This document shows positions 1,057 to 9,673 of a stretch of 23,613 nucleotides of DNA, piece after piece. The notes below the pieces were generated by a model, which was given only the letters and a program-made list of their open reading frames with translations, was not told the origin of the DNA and searched no databases. Source of the DNA: a virus. Positions within the stretch are counted from its first letter, which is position 1; every line of letters begins with the position of its first letter. The stretch lies in UHGV virus genome UHGV-0175648, one strand, 5' to 3'. The translations under genes were made by a program, and so were the position numbers.

Positions 1057-1359
1057 TTAACCAATTTTCCTTTCGGATGGGGGTAAGTCCGTTGGCTCTT
1101 GCCCATAGTGTGCGAGAGCCGGAGCTATCTGCCCGGATTCAGGCGCAATTTTTCCAGTCATAAACCACAACGCATATTTCTCAAATCTGGGGTTGTTTAG
1201 TATTTGCTCAATTACTTCAGCATTAGGGATAGTTTTACCGCTTTCATATCTCCACAGAGCATCACGGTTTAAACCAAGCATTTTTGCTGTATCCGGGAGG
1301 CTAGTAAGTCTCTCGCTTTCACGCATGATTTTTATGCGCTCTCCAATAGTCATACGCAT
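1057..1359 (-). CDS. C: P2 C-type immunity repressor (short HTH repressor)
   Basis: About 100 aa, similar to P2 C as recalled (…YESGKTIPNAEVIEQILNNPRFEKYALWFMTGKIAPESGQIAPALAHYGQ). It is divergent from the cox-like gene and adjacent to int. The ORF-track start at 1374 is TTG; the ATG at 1357-1359 has a GGAGA Shine-Dalgarno 8 nt upstream. Confidence 0.85.
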   Translation of the reverse strand: MRMTIGERIKIMRESERLTSLPDTAKMLGLNRDALWRYESGKTIPNAEVIEQILNNPRFEKYALWFMTGKIAPESGQIAPALAHYGQEPTDLPPSERKIG

Positions 1360-1454
1360 GTTGCAATTCTCCAACGTCTGTATTAATGTTTATACAAATG
1401 AGTTTGATTTGGGGCATCCGTCGCAAGAAATACCCCAAACAGGGAGATTATCAC
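1360..1454. promoter_or_regulatory. Divergent Pc/Pe lysis-lysogeny switch region (face-to-face promoters and operators expected)
   Basis: A 95 bp AT-rich spacer between the divergently transcribed C and cox-like genes. It contains sigma70-like hexamers (TTGCAA ... TATTAAT). The architecture is analogous to the P2 switch; promoters were not mapped. Confidence 0.5.
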
Positions 1455-3530: not shown

Positions 3531-3745
3531 GCAGAAAGCGAATCACACGCAGGCATCGCCGCACACACATGAATTCCTTACCGACGCTGAAAGAACTCAT
3601 TCAACACGAGATCGCTGATTTCTGCGCACCGCTGGGGTCGCCTGGCGAACCGGAAACGCCAGAAGCGATGCAGCGCGAACTCATGATGCGCATCGATAAC
3701 GTTTTTGACTTTTTCCTGAATAACAAAAGAGAGCAATCAACATGA
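3527..3745 (+). CDS. Hypothetical protein (72 aa, basic N-terminus)
   Basis: Translationally coupled on both sides (ATGA overlaps at 3527 and 3742). Confidence 0.5.
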   Translation: MSRKRITRRHRRTHMNSLPTLKELIQHEIADFCAPLGSPGEPETPEAMQRELMMRIDNVFDFFLNNKREQST

Positions 3746-3945
3746 ACAAAAAGACCTGGTTTCGCGCATATATGTGGGCGCTGGTATGCGTCCTCGTCTC
3801 TCTCATTCTGTATGCAGGACTACTCCCCCGAATGATTTCATCAGACAGCTCCTTCCTGGTATTGCTGGGCATTTTCATTGCCATGCTGTACCCGGCAGGC
3901 GTTGTTCGCCTTTTCAGTAAGTACATCAAGGAAATCAAACAATGA
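3742..3945 (+). CDS. Small inner-membrane protein with two predicted TM helices (67 aa)
   Basis: Two hydrophobic stretches (WALVCVLVSLILYAGLL and FLVLLGIFIAMLYPAGVV). It is translationally coupled to the downstream SPFH gene. Confidence 0.6.
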   Translation: MNKKTWFRAYMWALVCVLVSLILYAGLLPRMISSDSSFLVLLGIFIAMLYPAGVVRLFSKYIKEIKQ

Positions 3946-4772
3946 AGAAATTCAAACTCTTTCAGATTCTCCCGCTTTTTGCCGCCATCCTGCTGGTTGG
4001 CTGCGATCGCGTTGAGCCAGGTAATGTGGGCATCAAAGTCAACAAGCTGGGCGACGACAAAGGCGTTGGCGAAGTGGTTGGCGTTGGCCGCTACTGGACT
4101 GGCTGGAATACCGAGGTTTACATCTTCCCGACCTTCAAACAAATGAAGACCTACGATGACCCGTTCAGCTTCCAGATGAGTGACGGCACAACCATCGGCT
4201 ATCACATCGGCGTGGCCTACAAGGTCGATCCATCCAAAGTTACCACAGTGTTTCAGACCTACCGCAAAGGCGTGGATGACATTACCGACACTGACCTGCG
4301 CCAGAAGATCGCCGACGCACTCAACCGACTGGCCAGCAAAATGACCACAGATAAATTCATCGACGGTGGCAAGTCTGAACTGCTGGATTCAGCACTTAAA
4401 GATATTCAGGAAGAGATGACCCCCATCGGCATTCAGGTCATGAGCCTCTCTTATGTCGGTAAACCGGAATATCCGCCAACCGTTATCGACAGCATTAACG
4501 CCAAAGTCACGGCAAACCAGAAGACCCTGCAACGCGAACAGGAAGTCAAGCAACGCGAAGCAGAAGCCAACATGTTGCGCGCAGAAGCTGCCGGACAGGC
4601 TGATGCCATTCGCACAAAAGCCCAGGCTGAAGCCGACGCCATTCGTTTACGCGGTGAAGCTCTGCGCCAGAATCCCGGCGTTATGGAGCTGGAAGCAATC
4701 AACAAATGGAACGGCACGCTACCGCAATACATGACCAGCAATACCGCTGTTCCGTTTGTTCCGGTGAAGTAA
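3942..4772 (+). CDS. SPFH/band-7 (stomatin/prohibitin/HflK-C-like) lipoprotein, predicted inner-membrane retained
   Basis: Lipoprotein signal with lipobox LLVGC followed by Asp at +2 (CDRVEPG), which is an inner-membrane retention signal in E. coli. An SPFH-like core is followed by an Ala/Glu/Gln/Arg-rich coiled-coil tail (QREQEVKQREAEANMLRAEAAGQADAIRTKAQAEADAIRLRGEALRQ). The ribosome-binding site is AAGGAAA. Confidence 0.8.
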   Translation: MKKFKLFQILPLFAAILLVGCDRVEPGNVGIKVNKLGDDKGVGEVVGVGRYWTGWNTEVYIFPTFKQMKTYDDPFSFQMSDGTTIGYHIGVAYKVDPSKVTTVFQTYRKGVDDITDTDLRQKIADALNRLASKMTTDKFIDGGKSELLDSALKDIQEEMTPIGIQVMSLSYVGKPEYPPTVIDSINAKVTANQKTLQREQEVKQREAEANMLRAEAAGQADAIRTKAQAEADAIRLRGEALRQNPGVMELEAINKWNGTLPQYMTSNTAVPFVPVK

Positions 4773-4777
4773 TTAAA

Positions 4778-4803
4778 CCCGGCCAGTGAAAACCGCTGGC
4801 CGG
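4778..4803 (+). terminator. GC-rich stem-loop immediately downstream of the SPFH gene
   Basis: CCGGCCAG...CTGGCCGG inverted repeat with an 8 bp stem. A T-run (GGATTTTTT) follows after a short gap, so the terminator geometry is imperfect. Confidence 0.45.
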
Positions 4804-4934
4804 AGCAGTATCAGGATTTTTTAGTATGCCGTTCTCACAAAAAAACCGCTTGCCATGCCGCAATCAGTCAGGTTACATTTCCGCTGCACCTCATAAAACG
4901 GGTGCCGGGTTTCGCAGCCTGCTGACTACAAGAG

Positions 4935-4964
4935 CGCACAACCGCGCCAGCGGTTTTTTTGTGC
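4935..4964 (+). terminator. Rho-independent terminator-like hairpin with a T7 run
   Basis: CGCACAACCGCGCCAGCGGTTTTTTTGTGCG: the ACCGC/GCGGT stem is followed by seven T, and the outer arms CGCACAA/TTGTGCG are also complementary. Confidence 0.55.
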
Positions 4965-5139
4965 GTACTGTATTGCCACGTTTTTTTCGCGTCAGAATTA
5001 TGGCGGGGCGTACGGGGCCGACTTCGGTCGGGCCGGGATCTCTTGTAGCCGGTACTGCGAACCTCGTACGTCTCGCCACCCACAGTTTCGCAGCTCTGGA
5101 TGGTGAGTTTTCACAACTTACTACAAGAGGCCACATATC

Positions 5140-5370
5140 ATGGCAAACCGCAAACAGCACCGCACTATCGCGGAGCGTCGTCACATCCAGACTGAAATCA
5201 ACCGCAGACTTTCCCGCGCATTCCGCGTCGCTAAAATCATGCACATCAATATGCTGCATGAGCGTAGCTGCGAACTTTCAAACCTCTATTCATCCGCTGT
5301 TTTCAGCTATCTGGCGGATGATCTGCGCGAGCTTCAACAGCTCATCCAGCAGCAAAACAAACTCCATTAA
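5140..5370 (+). CDS. Hypothetical small basic protein (76 aa)
   Basis: ORF with an AAGAGG Shine-Dalgarno about 10 nt upstream. The N-terminus is Arg/Lys rich. No recognisable domain. Confidence 0.5.
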   Translation: MANRKQHRTIAERRHIQTEINRRLSRAFRVAKIMHINMLHERSCELSNLYSSAVFSYLADDLRELQQLIQQQNKLH

Positions 5371-5442
5371 TTCCTGTTCCGGGCCTTTCCTGCACCTTGC
5401 GGCGGGAGGCCTTCGCACATCTGTAACAAGAGGATTGCCGCA

Positions 5443-5808
5443 ATGATTCTCGCCAACGACTTTCTTGAATACCTGCTCAACACAGAACGTGATCTTGCCG
5501 CTCGCGTGCGTGATCGTTATGACATGTACCTGAAATCCCTGCCTGTACCGCAGCTCGCTGACGGAAAGATTGTTATTGATGGTCGCTACATGATTGACAG
5601 CCACGAGGGAAATTACAGGCTTTACCGCATTGAAGGTGGTACTCCGTCCGTTATTGGCATTTACCAGCGCCCATCCTCTGCAATCGTCGATGTGATTGCC
5701 GACAGCATCCGCATCACACATCGCCATGCCGACACAGAAGACACCGTGCTGGAAATTCAGCGGCTGGCTACAGTCTGCCGCGACACCCTGAATGGCATGA
5801 CGAAGTAA
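5443..5808 (+). CDS. Hypothetical protein (121 aa) immediately upstream of gene A
   Basis: ORF with an AAGAGGA Shine-Dalgarno 8 nt upstream. It occupies the position of P2 B/orf80-83; no P2 B-like sequence was recognised. Confidence 0.55.
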   Translation: MILANDFLEYLLNTERDLAARVRDRYDMYLKSLPVPQLADGKIVIDGRYMIDSHEGNYRLYRIEGGTPSVIGIYQRPSSAIVDVIADSIRITHRHADTEDTVLEIQRLATVCRDTLNGMTK

Positions 5809-5814
5809 ATCACT

Positions 5815-8637
5815 ATGACGGCAGAGTACATCAGGGACTGGCAACAACCGCGCCACGCAGTGGGGCGTGAAGGAACGGGGATCCCCGCTCCTGAATCCGC
5901 GCTTTCCTCCTGGCTGGATGCCTACCGGGCAGAGAACGAGCGCCGCCAGGAAATGGCTGATGCGGCGTTCTCCGCCACGCCGCTGGGCAACCTGATTAAT
6001 AAAAGCCTGGATGCACAGGAAAAACAGGACAAAACCATCACACTGGCAGGAGACGCCAGAAAACAGGCACGCGGCGCGGTGGATGAAGCCATGGCCTCGC
6101 TGCGCCTGCTGCCGTCCTATCTGCGCGATCCGCTTATTCGCCACCTCTCCTTCCTGCGCAAAAAACAGGAAGCCGATCGCCGGAAAGGCAAAAAGAGCTG
6201 GCAGGCTGAACGCTACGCGTGCGGAACCCTGCGCAAAATATTCGAACGTCTGGACCGCACCGACCACCACTGGCTGACACCGGCTTATCGCTCCCTTGCC
6301 GGACGCGAACGCCTGGATGATTTGCTTTACCTGCCGCAGCTCAACAAACACCAGATACAGACGCTGGCCACCATGACAGCGGCGATGTTCAGCAGCACCT
6401 TCGAAAAACTCTGCGATGGCTTTGGCGCGACTGATGGCGAGCTGACCATGGATGTAACGCTGAAGGCGTATCAGATGCTGGCCCGCATGGCGTTACACCT
6501 GCACGCCATGCCTCCGCATTATGACGCACTGACAACAGACAAAGACCGGAGGAACGAACCAGACACAGAACTGCTACCGGGCGCAATCCTTCGCCTGACC
6601 TGTGCGGAATGGTGGAAACGCAAACTGTGGCTGTTACGTTGCGAGTGGAGAGAAGAACAACTCCGCGCCGCCTGTCTGGTTTCCAGAAAAACATCGCCCT
6701 ATCTGAGCCAGGACGCGTTAAGCGAGTTTCGCGCACAGCGCGAGAAAACACGCGATTTCCTGAAAAGTTTCATGCTGGAAAATGAAGACGGGTTCACGAT
6801 TGATCTCGAGACGGTGTATTACGCGGGAGTAAGTAACCCGGTTCACCGTAAGGCAGAAATGATGGCCACCATGAAGGGACTGGAACTTCTGGCCGAAGCC
6901 CGTGGCGACAGAGCGGTGTTTCTGACCGTCACCTGCCCGTCAAAATACCACGCAACAACGGAGAACGGTCATCCGAACCCCAAATGGAACGGGGCCACCA
7001 TGCGCGACTCCAGCGATTACCTGGTTAACACGTTTTTTGCGGCGGTCCGCAAAAAACTGAACCGCGACGGCCTGCGCTGGTATGGCATCCGCACGGTGGA
7101 GCCTCACCATGACGGCACTGTGCACTGGCATATGATGGTCTTTGCACATCCGGACGAGATTGAAACCATCGTGTCCCACGTCTGCGATATTGCCATTCAG
7201 GAGGACCGCCACGAGCTGGGCGATGACATAACTCCGCGTTTTAAGGCGGAGTATGTCGACGGCTCAAAAGGCACACCAACCAGCTACATCGCCACCTACA
7301 TCGGAAAGAACCTGGACAGCCGCGCCGTGGATGGCATCGACCCGAAAACGGGCAAGCCACGCGTTGACCACGAAACCGGAAAATCAATGGCCGAGAGCGT
7401 GGAGCGCGCCATCGGTTGGGCACGCCTTCACCGGGTCCGCCAGTTCCAGTTCTTTGGCATCCCCTCCCGTCAGGTGTGGCGTGAACTCCGCCGCCTTGCC
7501 AGCCAGATGGCGCGCAACCCGGAAGGCCCGCAACGGCTGAAGGATGACGCAATGGATGCGGTACTCGCTGCCGCTGATGCCGGATGTTTTGCCACCTACA
7601 TAGAGAAACAGGGCGGCGTACTTGTTCCACGCAAAGACTACCTGATTCGTACCGCCTACGACCTCGCCGATGAGCTGAACGATTACGGCGAACAGAGCGT
7701 ACAGATTTACGGGATCTGGTCACCACTCATCGGGGAATCCTCCCGTGTGTGCACGCATCCGGATAACTGGAAGCTGGTAAGACGCAAACCGGAAGCGGAA
7801 GACAGCGCCCGCGAAAATGGTTTTGACCTTCAGGGCGGCCCTGCCGCCCCTTGGACTCGTGGCAATAACTGTCCCCGTGTACAGGAAACGAACAACAACG
7901 GGACAGAACAGCCGGAAGAACGGCCAGCACCGTGGCCGCAGCTCCCTGACGGCGTTGAAGTGAATGAATGGATGCGCTCACTGAAACGGCACGAACGCCG
8001 GGCGCTGATGCGTTCGCTGCGTGACAAACAGGCAAAAAACAGCAGTGATGAAATGCAGAGCTGGACACAGAGCCGCAAACAGCAGCGGCCTTTGCCTGAT
8101 AACCACGAATTACTCGCTAAAGAATGGCGGGAGTCTGCTGAATCTCTCGGCCTGCATATCGGTGAACAGCAGATGCAGCACCTGTTACGGGGCGGCAGTC
8201 TGTACGTTGACGGCAGCATCATTGCACCGCAGGGATTTGAAATTGTACGCAAACCGGATACCCGACCGGACAGCCGGATCACGCAGCTCTGGCAGCGCCT
8301 GAGCCGTAACCACGGCGTAAGCAGCACGGAGATCCGCCATAACCCGGTCGCCAGCTATCTGGAACAGCTGGGGGCATCAGACCCCGAAGCCGCCGCACGC
8401 CTGGCATCCACACTTCAGCAGGACCAGAACACCATGAAAACACCCGTTACCGTGCTTTCTGACATGCTGCGCGCCATCCGCGACGCAGAGCACGCACAGA
8501 GAATCAGTGAAACCACTGAACGCGCCCGCCGCAAAGCAGACCTGCTGCGGGGTGGCCTGACCAGTGGAAACAAAAAACAGACAGAAACGGGATTCACAAA
8601 TCCCGTAAATGAGCAAAAAACGCGCCGCGATATATGA
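5815..8637 (+). CDS. A: P2 gpA-family rolling-circle replication initiation endonuclease (940 aa)
   Basis: Contains the HUH-type metal-binding motif (EPHHDGTVHWHMMVF) and a catalytic tyrosine region (SYIATYIGKN) typical of P2/186 A proteins. It lies in the expected position after the early genes. The C-terminal roughly 300 aa is charged, low-complexity sequence. Confidence 0.92.
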   Translation: MTAEYIRDWQQPRHAVGREGTGIPAPESALSSWLDAYRAENERRQEMADAAFSATPLGNLINKSLDAQEKQDKTITLAGDARKQARGAVDEAMASLRLLPSYLRDPLIRHLSFLRKKQEADRRKGKKSWQAERYACGTLRKIFERLDRTDHHWLTPAYRSLAGRERLDDLLYLPQLNKHQIQTLATMTAAMFSSTFEKLCDGFGATDGELTMDVTLKAYQMLARMALHLHAMPPHYDALTTDKDRRNEPDTELLPGAILRLTCAEWWKRKLWLLRCEWREEQLRAACLVSRKTSPYLSQDALSEFRAQREKTRDFLKSFMLENEDGFTIDLETVYYAGVSNPVHRKAEMMATMKGLELLAEARGDRAVFLTVTCPSKYHATTENGHPNPKWNGATMRDSSDYLVNTFFAAVRKKLNRDGLRWYGIRTVEPHHDGTVHWHMMVFAHPDEIETIVSHVCDIAIQEDRHELGDDITPRFKAEYVDGSKGTPTSYIATYIGKNLDSRAVDGIDPKTGKPRVDHETGKSMAESVERAIGWARLHRVRQFQFFGIPSRQVWRELRRLASQMARNPEGPQRLKDDAMDAVLAAADAGCFATYIEKQGGVLVPRKDYLIRTAYDLADELNDYGEQSVQIYGIWSPLIGESSRVCTHPDNWKLVRRKPEAEDSARENGFDLQGGPAAPWTRGNNCPRVQETNNNGTEQPEERPAPWPQLPDGVEVNEWMRSLKRHERRALMRSLRDKQAKNSSDEMQSWTQSRKQQRPLPDNHELLAKEWRESAESLGLHIGEQQMQHLLRGGSLYVDGSIIAPQGFEIVRKPDTRPDSRITQLWQRLSRNHGVSSTEIRHNPVASYLEQLGASDPEAAARLASTLQQDQNTMKTPVTVLSDMLRAIRDAEHAQRISETTERARRKADLLRGGLTSGNKKQTETGFTNPVNEQKTRRDI

Positions 8638-8682
8638 AGCGCGCATAAAACAGGCAAAAACGGGATTTCAGAATCCCGTAAA
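8585..8682. promoter_or_regulatory. parC-like centromere/operator: two 25-bp direct repeats, each internally palindromic
   Basis: AAACGGGATTCACAAATCCCGTAAA at 8585-8609 and AAACGGGATTTCAGAATCCCGTAAA at 8658-8682, each containing ACGGGATT...AATCCCGT dyad symmetry. They sit immediately upstream of parM; the first lies inside the 3' end of gene A. Confidence 0.6.
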
Positions 8683-8713
8683 CGATTAATTAATCAACAT
8701 AAGGAAAAGCGAC

Positions 8714-9673
8714 ATGAAAATTTGTATCGATGACGGCTCCACCAACATCAAGCTGGCATGGACTGAGAACGGCGAACGCCGCAACGCCATCAGCCCGAAC
8801 AGCTTCAAGTCGGAATGGTCTGCGCCGTTCGGTGGCACGCAGCCCGCGAACTACATGCTTGATGGCGTGCGCTATGGTTTTGATCCGGTCAGCGATCGCT
8901 TTGTCCAGACGACCGACACGCAATACCAGTACAGCGATGTGAATGTCATTGCCATTCATCACGCGCTGGTCAAATCAGGCATCACACCACAGGAAGTGGA
9001 TGTGGTTGTCACCCTGCCACTGAGCGAGTATTTCGACACAAACGCACAGCCGGACATGGCCAACATCAACCGCAAAAAAGCAAACGTCATGCGCCCGGTG
9101 GCGTACCAGAACGGAAAAGCATTCACTATCCGTAACGTACGGGTTATGCCTGAATCCATTCCGGCTGGTTTTAAAGCACTGGCTGACATGAGTCCGTTTG
9201 AATCCCTGCTGATTGTGGATTTAGGCGGAACCACGCTGGATGTGGCAAAGGTTCAGGGGCAACTGGCAGGTATCAGCCAGGTGTTTTGCGATCCACACGT
9301 AGGCGTTTCTCTGATGGCCAATGCCGTACTGTCGGTGATGGCCACTAACGGTATGCGCACCAGTCACCACATCGCCAATACCATTATCGAACATCGCCAT
9401 GATGAAGCCTGGCTGCGCCAGCACATCCACAATGACGCGCATTACGCCAGCCTGATGGCGGTTATTCGTGAAAAGGAAGAAACACTGAAACAACGCGTGA
9501 TCCGCGCGCTGGCGGGTTTTTCGGGTTACGGGCGGGTGATGGTTGTCGGTGGCGGGGCGGAGATTGTGGCACCCGCTATCCGCGAAGCCTGCGGAGTTAA
9601 TGCGACTTTCATCGCGGACGGGGTGCCACAGTTTGCTCTGGTTAATGGGCTGTACGCAATGGACAAGGAGTAA
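8714..9673 (+). CDS. parM: ParM/StbA-family actin-like partition ATPase
   Basis: 319 aa with strong similarity along the whole length to plasmid R1 ParM / R100 StbA as I recall it (MKICIDDGSTNIKLAW..., YSDVNVIAIHHAL, VMPESIPAG, LIVDLGGTTLD, GVSLM, VVGGGAE, LVNGLY). The ribosome-binding site is AAGGA. Confidence 0.85.
   Translation: MKICIDDGSTNIKLAWTENGERRNAISPNSFKSEWSAPFGGTQPANYMLDGVRYGFDPVSDRFVQTTDTQYQYSDVNVIAIHHALVKSGITPQEVDVVVTLPLSEYFDTNAQPDMANINRKKANVMRPVAYQNGKAFTIRNVRVMPESIPAGFKALADMSPFESLLIVDLGGTTLDVAKVQGQLAGISQVFCDPHVGVSLMANAVLSVMATNGMRTSHHIANTIIEHRHDEAWLRQHIHNDAHYASLMAVIREKEETLKQRVIRALAGFSGYGRVMVVGGGAEIVAPAIREACGVNATFIADGVPQFALVNGLYAMDKE

Follow-up and report, generated by a model that had tools for sequence, protein, structure and literature searches.

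A putative IsrK-C4 antisense-RNA immunity cassette in the early operon of a P2-like prophage of Escherichia coli

The analysed window is the whole 23,613-nt stretch of the UHGV virus genome UHGV-0175648, whose host element is a P2-like prophage of the P88/Xuanwuvirus type from Escherichia coli. Its gene order starts with the integrase, a helix-turn-helix repressor (1057-1374, minus strand), and the adjoining cox-like gene, and further on leads from an SPFH gene through the region under study (4773-5139) to an open reading frame (ORF) of 76 amino acids (aa), a second ORF of 121 aa, replication gene A, and the late genes. An initial annotation of the region had offered a riboregulatory or attenuation switch, a small RNA gene, and protein-binding iterons as alternative explanations. 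The region was found to contain two RNA genes of known Rfam families (RF01695 and RF01394), which bears out the small-RNA alternative; the pairing logic of the proposed switch also stands, but it resides in two discrete RNA genes of known families rather than in a new cis-acting attenuator. For comparison, 16 loci were fetched from annotated phages (17 loci with the window), including P88, vB_EcoM-569R5 (569R5) and P88_4B11 (both P88-like phages of E. coli), a Citrobacter relative, P4, eight Escherichia and Salmonella phages (mostly lambdoid or Stx-converting), phiKO2, and one Klebsiella phage. A second sample consisted of 80 P88-like viral contigs, 79 of which were scored for the sequence boxes and the open frame described below. 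In all 16 comparison loci isrK is followed by C4 on the same strand, the pair being represented in P4 by the seqA region and the CI RNA.

The first RNA gene (4886-4960, plus strand) encodes an IsrK-family small RNA, the equivalent of P4 seqA, and matched model positions 1-77 of Rfam family RF01394 with 66.7 bits (gathering score 50). The RNA is composed of hairpin 1 (4886-4905), hairpin 2 (4906-4921), a single-stranded linker, and a terminator hairpin (4940-4955) with a U7 tail. Across the comparison loci 94% of the cells in the IsrK helices were paired, and six pairs showed compensatory changes. The terminator with seven T recorded by the initial annotation was recovered with its stem at 4940-4955 and the T-run at 4954-4960, and was classified as a consensus intrinsic terminator by a terminator scan. 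It is the one canonical terminator of the two that had been claimed for the region, the other, a GC-rich hairpin further upstream, being absent from the plus-strand scan. A sigma-70 promoter was predicted at 4850-4879 (plus strand; -35 hexamer TTGCCA at 4850-4855, 18-nt spacer, -10 hexamer TACATT at 4874-4879), from which transcription would begin at the 5' end of IsrK. The distance of these hexamers from the IsrK 5' end is equal in all 17 loci, and the promoter is the positional equivalent of P_LE in P4. Two boxes of IsrK on the plus strand are complementary to C4: b1 (TTCGCAG, 4911-4917) lies in the loop of hairpin 2 and is complementary to box b' of C4, and a1 (CTACAAGAG, 4926-4934) lies in the single-stranded linker and is complementary to box a'.

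The second RNA gene (4996-5083, plus strand) encodes a C4-family antisense RNA, the equivalent of P4 CI, and yielded a full-length match (1-87) to Rfam family RF01695 with 81.1 bits (gathering score 45). Its closing stem of 17 bp (5001-5017 and 5062-5078) encloses a UUCG hairpin (5018-5031), a hairpin with a 12-nt loop (5032-5053), and an 8-nt linker, and is followed by the 3' tail ACC. The CUUCGG hairpin reported by the initial annotation thus is present at 5018-5031 and corresponds to helix 2 of the C4 RNA. The minimum free energy (MFE) structure is identical to the consensus fold (-47 kcal/mol, z-score -4.2). All cells of the 27 base pairs were paired (100%, compared with 31-46% for slid controls), 13 of the 27 pairs showed compensatory changes, and none of 500 shuffles attained the covariation score. 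Both C residues of the ACC following the stem end are invariant in 15 sequences, which is compatible with a tRNA-like end recognized by RNase P. Box a' (CTCTTGTAG, 5040-5048, plus strand) is exposed in the loop of hairpin 3 with a probability of being unpaired of 0.83; its conserved 5' part resembles an anti-Shine-Dalgarno sequence, and its variable 3' part sets the specificity. Box b' (CTGCGAA, 5055-5061, plus strand) occupies the single-stranded linker (probability of being unpaired 0.98).

In a permissive Rfam scan of 4700-5250 the only matches were to C4, isrK, and the c4-a1b1 motif, with no riboswitch or other cis-regulatory family. The c4-a1b1 motif (RF03163) was not retained, as it scored 20.5 bits at 4873-4925 against a gathering score of 46.7; the a1/b1 function is present, and the RNA is of the IsrK type. 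ARAGORN found no tRNA or transfer-messenger RNA in the window, and the tRNA-like stem belongs to C4. A second promoter-like site was observed at 4973-5001 (TTGCCA, 17 nt, AATTAT), the -10 hexamer of which corresponds to the conserved sequence AAUUAUGG at the 5' edge of C4 and the -35 hexamer of which reads TCGCCA in P88 and the Citrobacter phage. This site was not adopted and is probably non-functional, as a start there would truncate C4; C4 might still have a promoter of its own.

The motif that the initial annotation had seen three times is the 9-mer CTACAAGAG, which occurs at 4926-4934 and 5121-5129 on the plus strand and as its reverse complement at 5040-5048 (the earlier numbers were off by one base). 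These three matches are the only ones in the entire window (0.09 expected; three matches were reached in 0 of 100 shuffles), and all of them lie inside the studied region. The first and inverted copies are boxes a1 and a', whereas the third, extended by a G, is box a2 (5121-5130, plus strand) in the mRNA leader of the 76-aa ORF. It overlaps the Shine-Dalgarno (SD) sequence of this ORF (AAGAGG, 5125-5130, 9 nt from the ATG at 5140), as had been proposed. A second set of boxes was overlooked at that time: the direct repeat GTTTCGCAGC (4909-4918 and 5085-5094), with the complement CTGCGAA at 5055-5061, includes box b1 and, 4 nt after the C4 match, box b2 (TTCGCAG, 5087-5093, plus strand) in the leader. 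In 17 of 17 loci a2 is located immediately upstream of the ATG of the next ORF and overlaps its SD sequence.

Pairing between the two RNAs was supported by comparison of the loci. Of the a1/b1 to a'/b' positions, 95.4% were paired compared with 63.9% after shuffling, 13 of the 16 pairs contained a compensatory change, and the covariation score was 0.845 versus 0.221 for shuffled pairings, with 0 of 500 shuffles as high. For a2 and b2 a matrix of cognate and non-cognate combinations was used instead of a column-wise pair count, because MAFFT placed the leader out of register. In this matrix the mean number of Watson-Crick pairs was 9.2 for cognate versus 4.6 for non-cognate a'/a2 combinations, 7.0 versus 3.05 for b'/b2, and 6.8 versus 2.46 for b'/b1, and cognate-specific matches between C4 and leader boxes were seen in 15-17 loci. 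The energies calculated for the box duplexes were -17.4 kcal/mol for a'-a2, -13.1 for a'-a1, -10.8 for b'-b2, and -15.7 for b'-b1. Duplex energies were chosen because RNAcofold cannot model loop-loop pairing without opening helices; the energy gained by cofolding C4 with its targets in this program was small or nil (0.0 kcal/mol for the leader and -3.3 kcal/mol for IsrK). Since the three copies change in concert and G-U pairs occur on the plus strand only, selection acts on RNA pairing. RNA folding and covariation analysis, which had been suggested with the initial annotation, thus revealed stable and conserved structures and boxes changing in concert across phages. The inverted copy would indeed be able to sequester the ribosome-binding site, being exposed in a hairpin loop, complementary to both the SD-overlapping and the upstream copy, and co-varying with them. 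The earlier pairing idea proved correct for the most part, in a system that had been described before.

The boxes differ even among near-identical phages. Box a reads CTACAAGAG in the window, CTACACAAG in 569R5, CAACTACAG in P88, and CAACCAAAG in the Citrobacter phage. At least 12 a-types and 5 b-types were found in varied combinations among the 80 P88-like contigs, and cognate boxes had changed in concert: the exact reverse complement of a' was present both upstream and downstream in 71 of 79 contigs, and that of b' in 79 of 79. The proteins encoded by the 76-aa ORF are 87-100% identical among the P88-like phages with these hypervariable boxes. Some box types are common to lambdoid prophages, and the b-type of the window (CTGCGAA) also occurs in ASU11 and in Stx1/Stx2 phages.

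The proposed regulated target is the gene that follows the leader (5140-5370, plus strand, 76 aa), which is a homolog of the gene for the helper-derepression (antirepressor) protein epsilon of P4. It matched the Pfam family Derepression (PF25738) with 30.1 bits (cutoff 27), and BLASTP aligned its product to P4 epsilon with 30% identity over 66 aa (E = 2e-9). The gene is annotated as 'derepression protein' in the P88 record, and epsilon is called 'helper derepression protein' in the P4 record. The C-terminal half of the epsilon-like protein (5200-5340) was observed to diverge fast among otherwise 84-95% identical phages, with 24 of 76 codons non-synonymous in comparison with the Citrobacter phage; co-evolution with the cognate repressor is a possible reason. 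Further downstream lies the 121-aa ORF (5443-5808, plus strand; phrog_3237, function unknown), which is always located between the epsilon-like gene and gene A and has no similarity to P4 orf151 (E = 0.16). NCBIfam yielded nothing for either of the two small ORFs (76 and 121 aa). The P2-type replication gene A (5815-8637, plus strand; Pfam Phage_GPA, E = 1.7e-129) follows downstream in the same transcription unit. It has the same orientation as the cassette and no obvious promoter of its own, and its expression would depend on read-through of the cassette.

The statement of the initial annotation that the region lacks convincing coding capacity holds in so far as the amino acid sequence is not conserved, but a frame of 206 codons (4826-5446, plus strand) spans the region and is kept open. 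This frame, which resembles eta of P4, starts with an ATG 60 nt upstream of the IsrK 5' end and crosses IsrK, C4, and the entire epsilon-like gene, with which it is out of frame in all P88-like phages. Its TGA overlaps the ATG of the 121-aa ORF (ATGA, 5443-5446), and an ATGA end was found in 77 of 79 loci, which suggests translational coupling of the two reading frames. In 75 of the 79 P88-like loci the frame begins with an ATG that precedes the IsrK 5' end and is uninterrupted; an ATG stood just before the conserved element in every upstream context examined, and it was in the same frame in the majority of contexts. Stop-creating variants were depleted in the eta-like frame, where 3 were counted against a random expectation of 7.2; each of the other two frames had 14. 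The amino acid changes in the frame look neutral, with, for example, 11 synonymous and 28 non-synonymous codons versus Shae_phiSM. The only Pfam signal of the frame, Phage_ASH (PF10554), scored 23 bits against a cutoff of 26, and the match was confined to residues 17-101 (4874-5129), which is the part encoded by isrK and C4. PF10554 was also noted for the P4 ORF at 8168-8812 (minus strand), and the family may for the most part represent translated RNA genes of this kind, or eta-like read-through frames, and not a folded protein. The frame is annotated as a coding sequence (CDS) in 569R5 and P88_4B11.

The P4 ORF at 8168..8812 (minus strand) likewise starts upstream of P_LE and spans seqA and CI. 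Unlike the out-of-frame arrangement in the window, it ends in frame with a 65-aa ORF that begins with MATTLTPSH and that we take to be kil. Such an ORF is in frame with the first downstream gene in P4 and in 6 of the 10 other non-P88-like phage loci that have it, and several lambdoid loci share an eta-type ORF in frame with their antirepressor. In P4 this ORF is eta. Ribosomes translate it only on transcripts from the late promoter upstream, and thereby prevent termination (PMC10111431). By analogy, it seems reasonably likely that the frame in the window is an eta-like device that would let early-promoter transcripts pass the cassette to reach gene A.

The region is interpreted, with a probability of roughly 0.8, as an IsrK-C4 antisense-RNA immunity (anti-immunity) cassette in the early operon of a P2-like (P88/Xuanwuvirus) prophage that gates an epsilon-like antirepressor; the name 'IsrK-C4 immunity system' has been used before (PMC3632133). 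This interpretation is directly supported by both family memberships, the RNA structures, the three-way complementarity and its covariation, the homology of the target to P4 epsilon, and the conservation of the open frame. For the processing, the direction of regulation, the decoy role of IsrK, the antirepressor activity, and the role of the open frame it draws on homologous systems. C4 blocks the ribosome-binding site of ant/icd in P1/P7 (PMC12197685), and C4 as well as P4 CI are RNase P substrates cut from longer transcripts (PMC5499578). In Gifsy-1 some IsrK transcripts read through the terminator, with a stable processed RNA (STnc1160) downstream, and the short IsrK switches on translation of the antirepressor operon in trans (PMC4825925). 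In the window a constitutive promoter at 4850-4879 would start transcription at approximately 4886, and most transcripts would stop at the intrinsic terminator to give an IsrK RNA of about 75 nt. Read-through transcripts would carry C4 (4996-5083), which might be cut out by RNase P by analogy with P1/P7 C4 and P4 CI. Box a' in the loop of C4 would then pair with a2 and the SD sequence (5121-5130) and b' in the linker with b2 (5087-5093). This pairing would block translation of the epsilon-like antirepressor and, through polarity, probably also the downstream genes transcribed from the IsrK promoter. IsrK might compete for C4 with its boxes b1 and a1, either in trans or in cis within the precursor, so that the balance between IsrK and C4 would decide on antirepressor synthesis and prophage derepression. 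A competing role of the first copy as an 'anti-anti-SD', as the initial annotation put it, would agree with the activation of downstream translation in trans by Gifsy-1 IsrK (PMC4825925). Transcripts from the repressor-controlled early promoter start upstream and would probably escape, as ribosomes on the 206-codon frame would cross IsrK, C4, and the target site.

Several points weigh against the proposed antirepressor gate. The transcripts, the RNase P processing, and the promoter activity are predictions, and the case for antirepressor activity consists of 30% identity with P4 epsilon and of a Pfam score that exceeds the cutoff by only 3 bits. The leader alone (5094-5130) already sequesters the SD sequence in part, so C4 may not be the sole control: the SD/a2 segment is mostly paired (probability of being unpaired 0.16), with CUCU at 5094-5097 bound to AGAG at 5126-5129 around an inner hairpin. 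This fold could be an additional layer of translational control or a structure that is remodelled by C4 or IsrK. Statistical support for selection on the 206-codon frame is modest, since 134 of 2000 simulations gave stop-creating counts as low as 3. Moreover, the upstream boxes act differently in the model systems, seqA being needed for immunity and termination in P4 and IsrK activating in Gifsy-1. Because P4 and Gifsy-1 differ in this respect, the sign of the IsrK effect in the window is uncertain.

One alternative, which overlaps with the antirepressor gate but differs in the key output (control of replication and immunity instead of an antirepressor), is the P4-type mechanism, in which the main effect of C4 would be that transcripts from the internal promoter end early in a Rho-dependent manner, so that gene A and orf121 stay silent in the lysogen. 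This mechanism would agree with a gene order like that of the P4 left operon (promoter, seqA, CI, seqC, first translated gene, epsilon, replication gene), with the position of gene A next in the same orientation and lacking an obvious promoter, and with the logic described for P4 (PMC10111431; PMC4825925). However, no Rho-dependent terminator is identifiable by sequence, a2 overlaps the ribosome-binding site in every locus, and the first gene is of the antirepressor type in nearly all lineages. The location of a2 at the ribosome-binding site of a gene of this type points to translation of the first gene as the direct target, and termination as the main output is considered possible but unlikely. 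A purely cis-acting leader switch, in which the inverted copy would either sequester the SD sequence or pair with the first copy without any free small RNAs, has lower odds still. The MFE structure of a read-through transcript (4886-5160; -106 kcal/mol, z-score -3.9) does pair a1/b1 with a'/b' in cis and resembles structure A of the Gifsy-1 isrK-orf45 transcript. IsrK possesses its own predicted promoter and a strong intrinsic terminator, though, and the C4 fold is very stable and closed with a tRNA-like end, its P1/P7 and P4 homologs being excised by RNase P and acting in trans. In addition, the short IsrK and the processed STnc1160 were detected as separate RNAs in Gifsy-1, and the switch in its exclusively cis form appears improbable.

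Two further explanations were considered. The 206-codon frame might encode a genuine 'Ash family' or transcriptional-regulator protein of 206 aa, with the repeats being incidental. The open frame in 75 of 79 loci, the CDS annotation in 569R5 and P88_4B11, and the weak Phage_ASH match would fit such a protein, but the frame overlaps the epsilon homolog out of frame, and covariation follows RNA pairing and not codons. In view of the neutral-looking substitution pattern and the sub-threshold Pfam match that covers only the residues encoded by the RNA genes, this candidate was rejected as very improbable. The repeats could also act as DNA, as iterons or as operators to which a protein binds; three copies of a 9-mer within 200 bp and close to a replication gene might suggest this. 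Iterons are contradicted by the middle copy, which always covaries as the reverse complement, and by the tolerance of G-U but not A-C combinations, a strand-specific and RNA-like pattern seen on the plus strand only. Furthermore, the copies reside in loops or linkers of RNAs with conserved structure, and no protein-binding family fits. The iteron alternative offered by the initial annotation was rejected, and its chance of being correct is considered minimal.

Upstream of the cassette, a GC-rich hairpin (4779-4803, plus strand; stem 4779-4788 and 4794-4803) lies just behind the stop codon of the SPFH gene. It exists and is stable as initially described (-21.1 kcal/mol, z-score -4.0), but is not a canonical terminator, as no T-run follows directly (a T6 lies 13 nt downstream). 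The exact hairpin was found in 6 of the 80 P88-like loci and travels with the SPFH insert, not with the RNA cassette. The insert (3742-4772) carries genes for a predicted membrane protein of 67 aa and for a protein of the SPFH/Band 7 type that matches a PHROG family labelled lipoprotein; the two genes, which 569R5, P88_4B11, and the Citrobacter phage lack, form an apparent moron in the early operon. The stretch that separates the insert end from the conserved cassette contains a direct repeat (AAAACCGCTGGCC at 4789-4801 and AAAACCGCTTGCC at 4842-4854); its first copy is part of the hairpin at 4779-4803 and is also perfectly complementary, over 12 nt, to the IsrK terminator (4946-4957). The repeat is possibly a scar left by recombination of the SPFH moron, an insert present in only some of the P88-like phages. 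Immediately before the -35 hexamer, the element CACAAAAAAACCGCT (4836-4850, plus strand) forms a perfect 15-nt complement of the 3' half of the IsrK terminator (4949-4963), and in the MFE structure of 4800-4985 a long-range helix of these two segments replaces the terminator. The element is conserved among the P88-like loci, with one concerted one-base indel (L063) and two uncompensated changes (L057 and L072). It may act as an RNA anti-terminator for transcripts arriving from upstream; judging by its position, its A-run could instead be an UP element of the IsrK promoter.

At least 80% of the segment 4836-5145 was present in 1161 of 5426 complete E. coli genomes (approximately one fifth), with up to four copies per genome. 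Some genomes carry two to four copies of the cassette, so that C4/IsrK sets of different or identical box types would coexist in polylysogens. The RNAs are unannotated in the RefSeq record of E. coli, where the 76-aa gene is 'hypothetical', as well as in the examined stretches of all 16 phage records, among which the phiKO2 record marks only a putative terminator. Instead, CDSs have been drawn across the RNA genes, such as a minus-strand hypothetical protein in P88 (L001, 5033-5221) and a 'transcriptional regulator' in P88_4B11 (L015/L016, 850-1467), and in lambdoid records Rha/Ant antirepressor CDSs are extended about 600 nt upstream over the RNAs (L004, 541-1692; L009, 547-1704; L007, 673-1695). 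A literature search found no earlier description of this cassette for helper-type phages of the P2-like group. Work on P1/P7 and P4 had already established the basic mechanism, and the gain is one of annotation and comparative detail, not of a new principle. The assignment places two known RNA genes and a likely antirepressor switch where the records show blank sequence or hypothetical proteins, indicates that the epsilon and RNA immunity module of P4 is common to helper-type phages, and provides a large natural set of a/b specificity variants usable for tests of antisense specificity or heteroimmunity. It also suggests an induction route for P88-type P2-like prophages. P88 was recovered after mitomycin C treatment (PMC5285337), and no LexA site of the form CTGT-N8-ACAG was found near the cassette (6 near-matches in the window, 7.1 expected).

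Since helpers and P4 share the RNA system and an epsilon-type derepressor, the boxes are hypervariable, and some types are shared with lambdoid prophages, the box code might even serve as a currency of helper-satellite conflict, with the 206-codon frame, as a variant of P4 eta, existing only to carry ribosomes through the cassette. This extension is speculative and rather doubtful. If true, the antirepressor of a satellite or phage with matching boxes, whether already resident or newly arriving, could be silenced by a resident C4 and unleashed by a resident IsrK, and prophage induction in polylysogens would depend on RNA cross-talk.

Among known systems, P4 shares with the window the two Rfam families in identical order, a constitutive promoter (predicted in the window) at the 5' end of IsrK/seqA, two box pairs upstream and downstream of the antisense RNA, a long ORF running from upstream of the internal promoter through both RNAs, and epsilon-family and replication genes downstream. 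The window differs in belonging to a complete P2-like phage of the helper type, whereas P4 is a satellite. In the window the epsilon homolog directly follows the target site, a position held by kil in P4; the eta-like frame is not in register with this gene, and its stop codon overlaps the start of the next ORF (ATGA); the replication gene encodes P2 gpA in place of the P4 alpha primase; and the spacer between the two RNAs measures 35 nt compared with 107 nt in P4.

The immI locus of P1/P7, as described in the literature, also has a C4-family RNA with a' and b' boxes; these are complementary to a2/b2 at the ribosome-binding site that belongs to the leading gene of the antirepressor operon, and a1/b1 boxes are located upstream. 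P1/P7 C4 determines heteroimmunity, with the box sequence setting the specificity between related phages (PMC12197685; PMC7313666). In the window, in contrast, a1/b1 are located in an IsrK-type RNA with its own terminator, and the target is of the epsilon type and not icd/ant. The isrK-orf45 (STnc1160)-anrP locus of Gifsy-1 in Salmonella shares the IsrK small RNA and the read-through into a processed RNA and an antirepressor gene. According to the published positions, the orf45 start appears to be the AUG at the 5' edge of C4, in the frame of the eta-like ORF of the window. Gifsy-1 differs in being lambdoid with AnrP as its antirepressor, and its published model treats the C4 equivalent as a small ORF without a'/b' loop pairing, whereas covariation in the present loci points to pairing of the C4 type. 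Binding of IsrK to Hfq and its activation of downstream translation in trans are known for Gifsy-1 only (PMC4825925). Finally, the anti-immunity locus of N15/phiKO2 (small processed RNA - icd - antA/B/C) is related in that phiKO2 has isrK, c4-a1b1, and C4 matches, cognate boxes, and icd-like and antA-like genes downstream; it is distinguished from the window by these downstream genes and by having no eta-like frame that starts upstream of the promoter.

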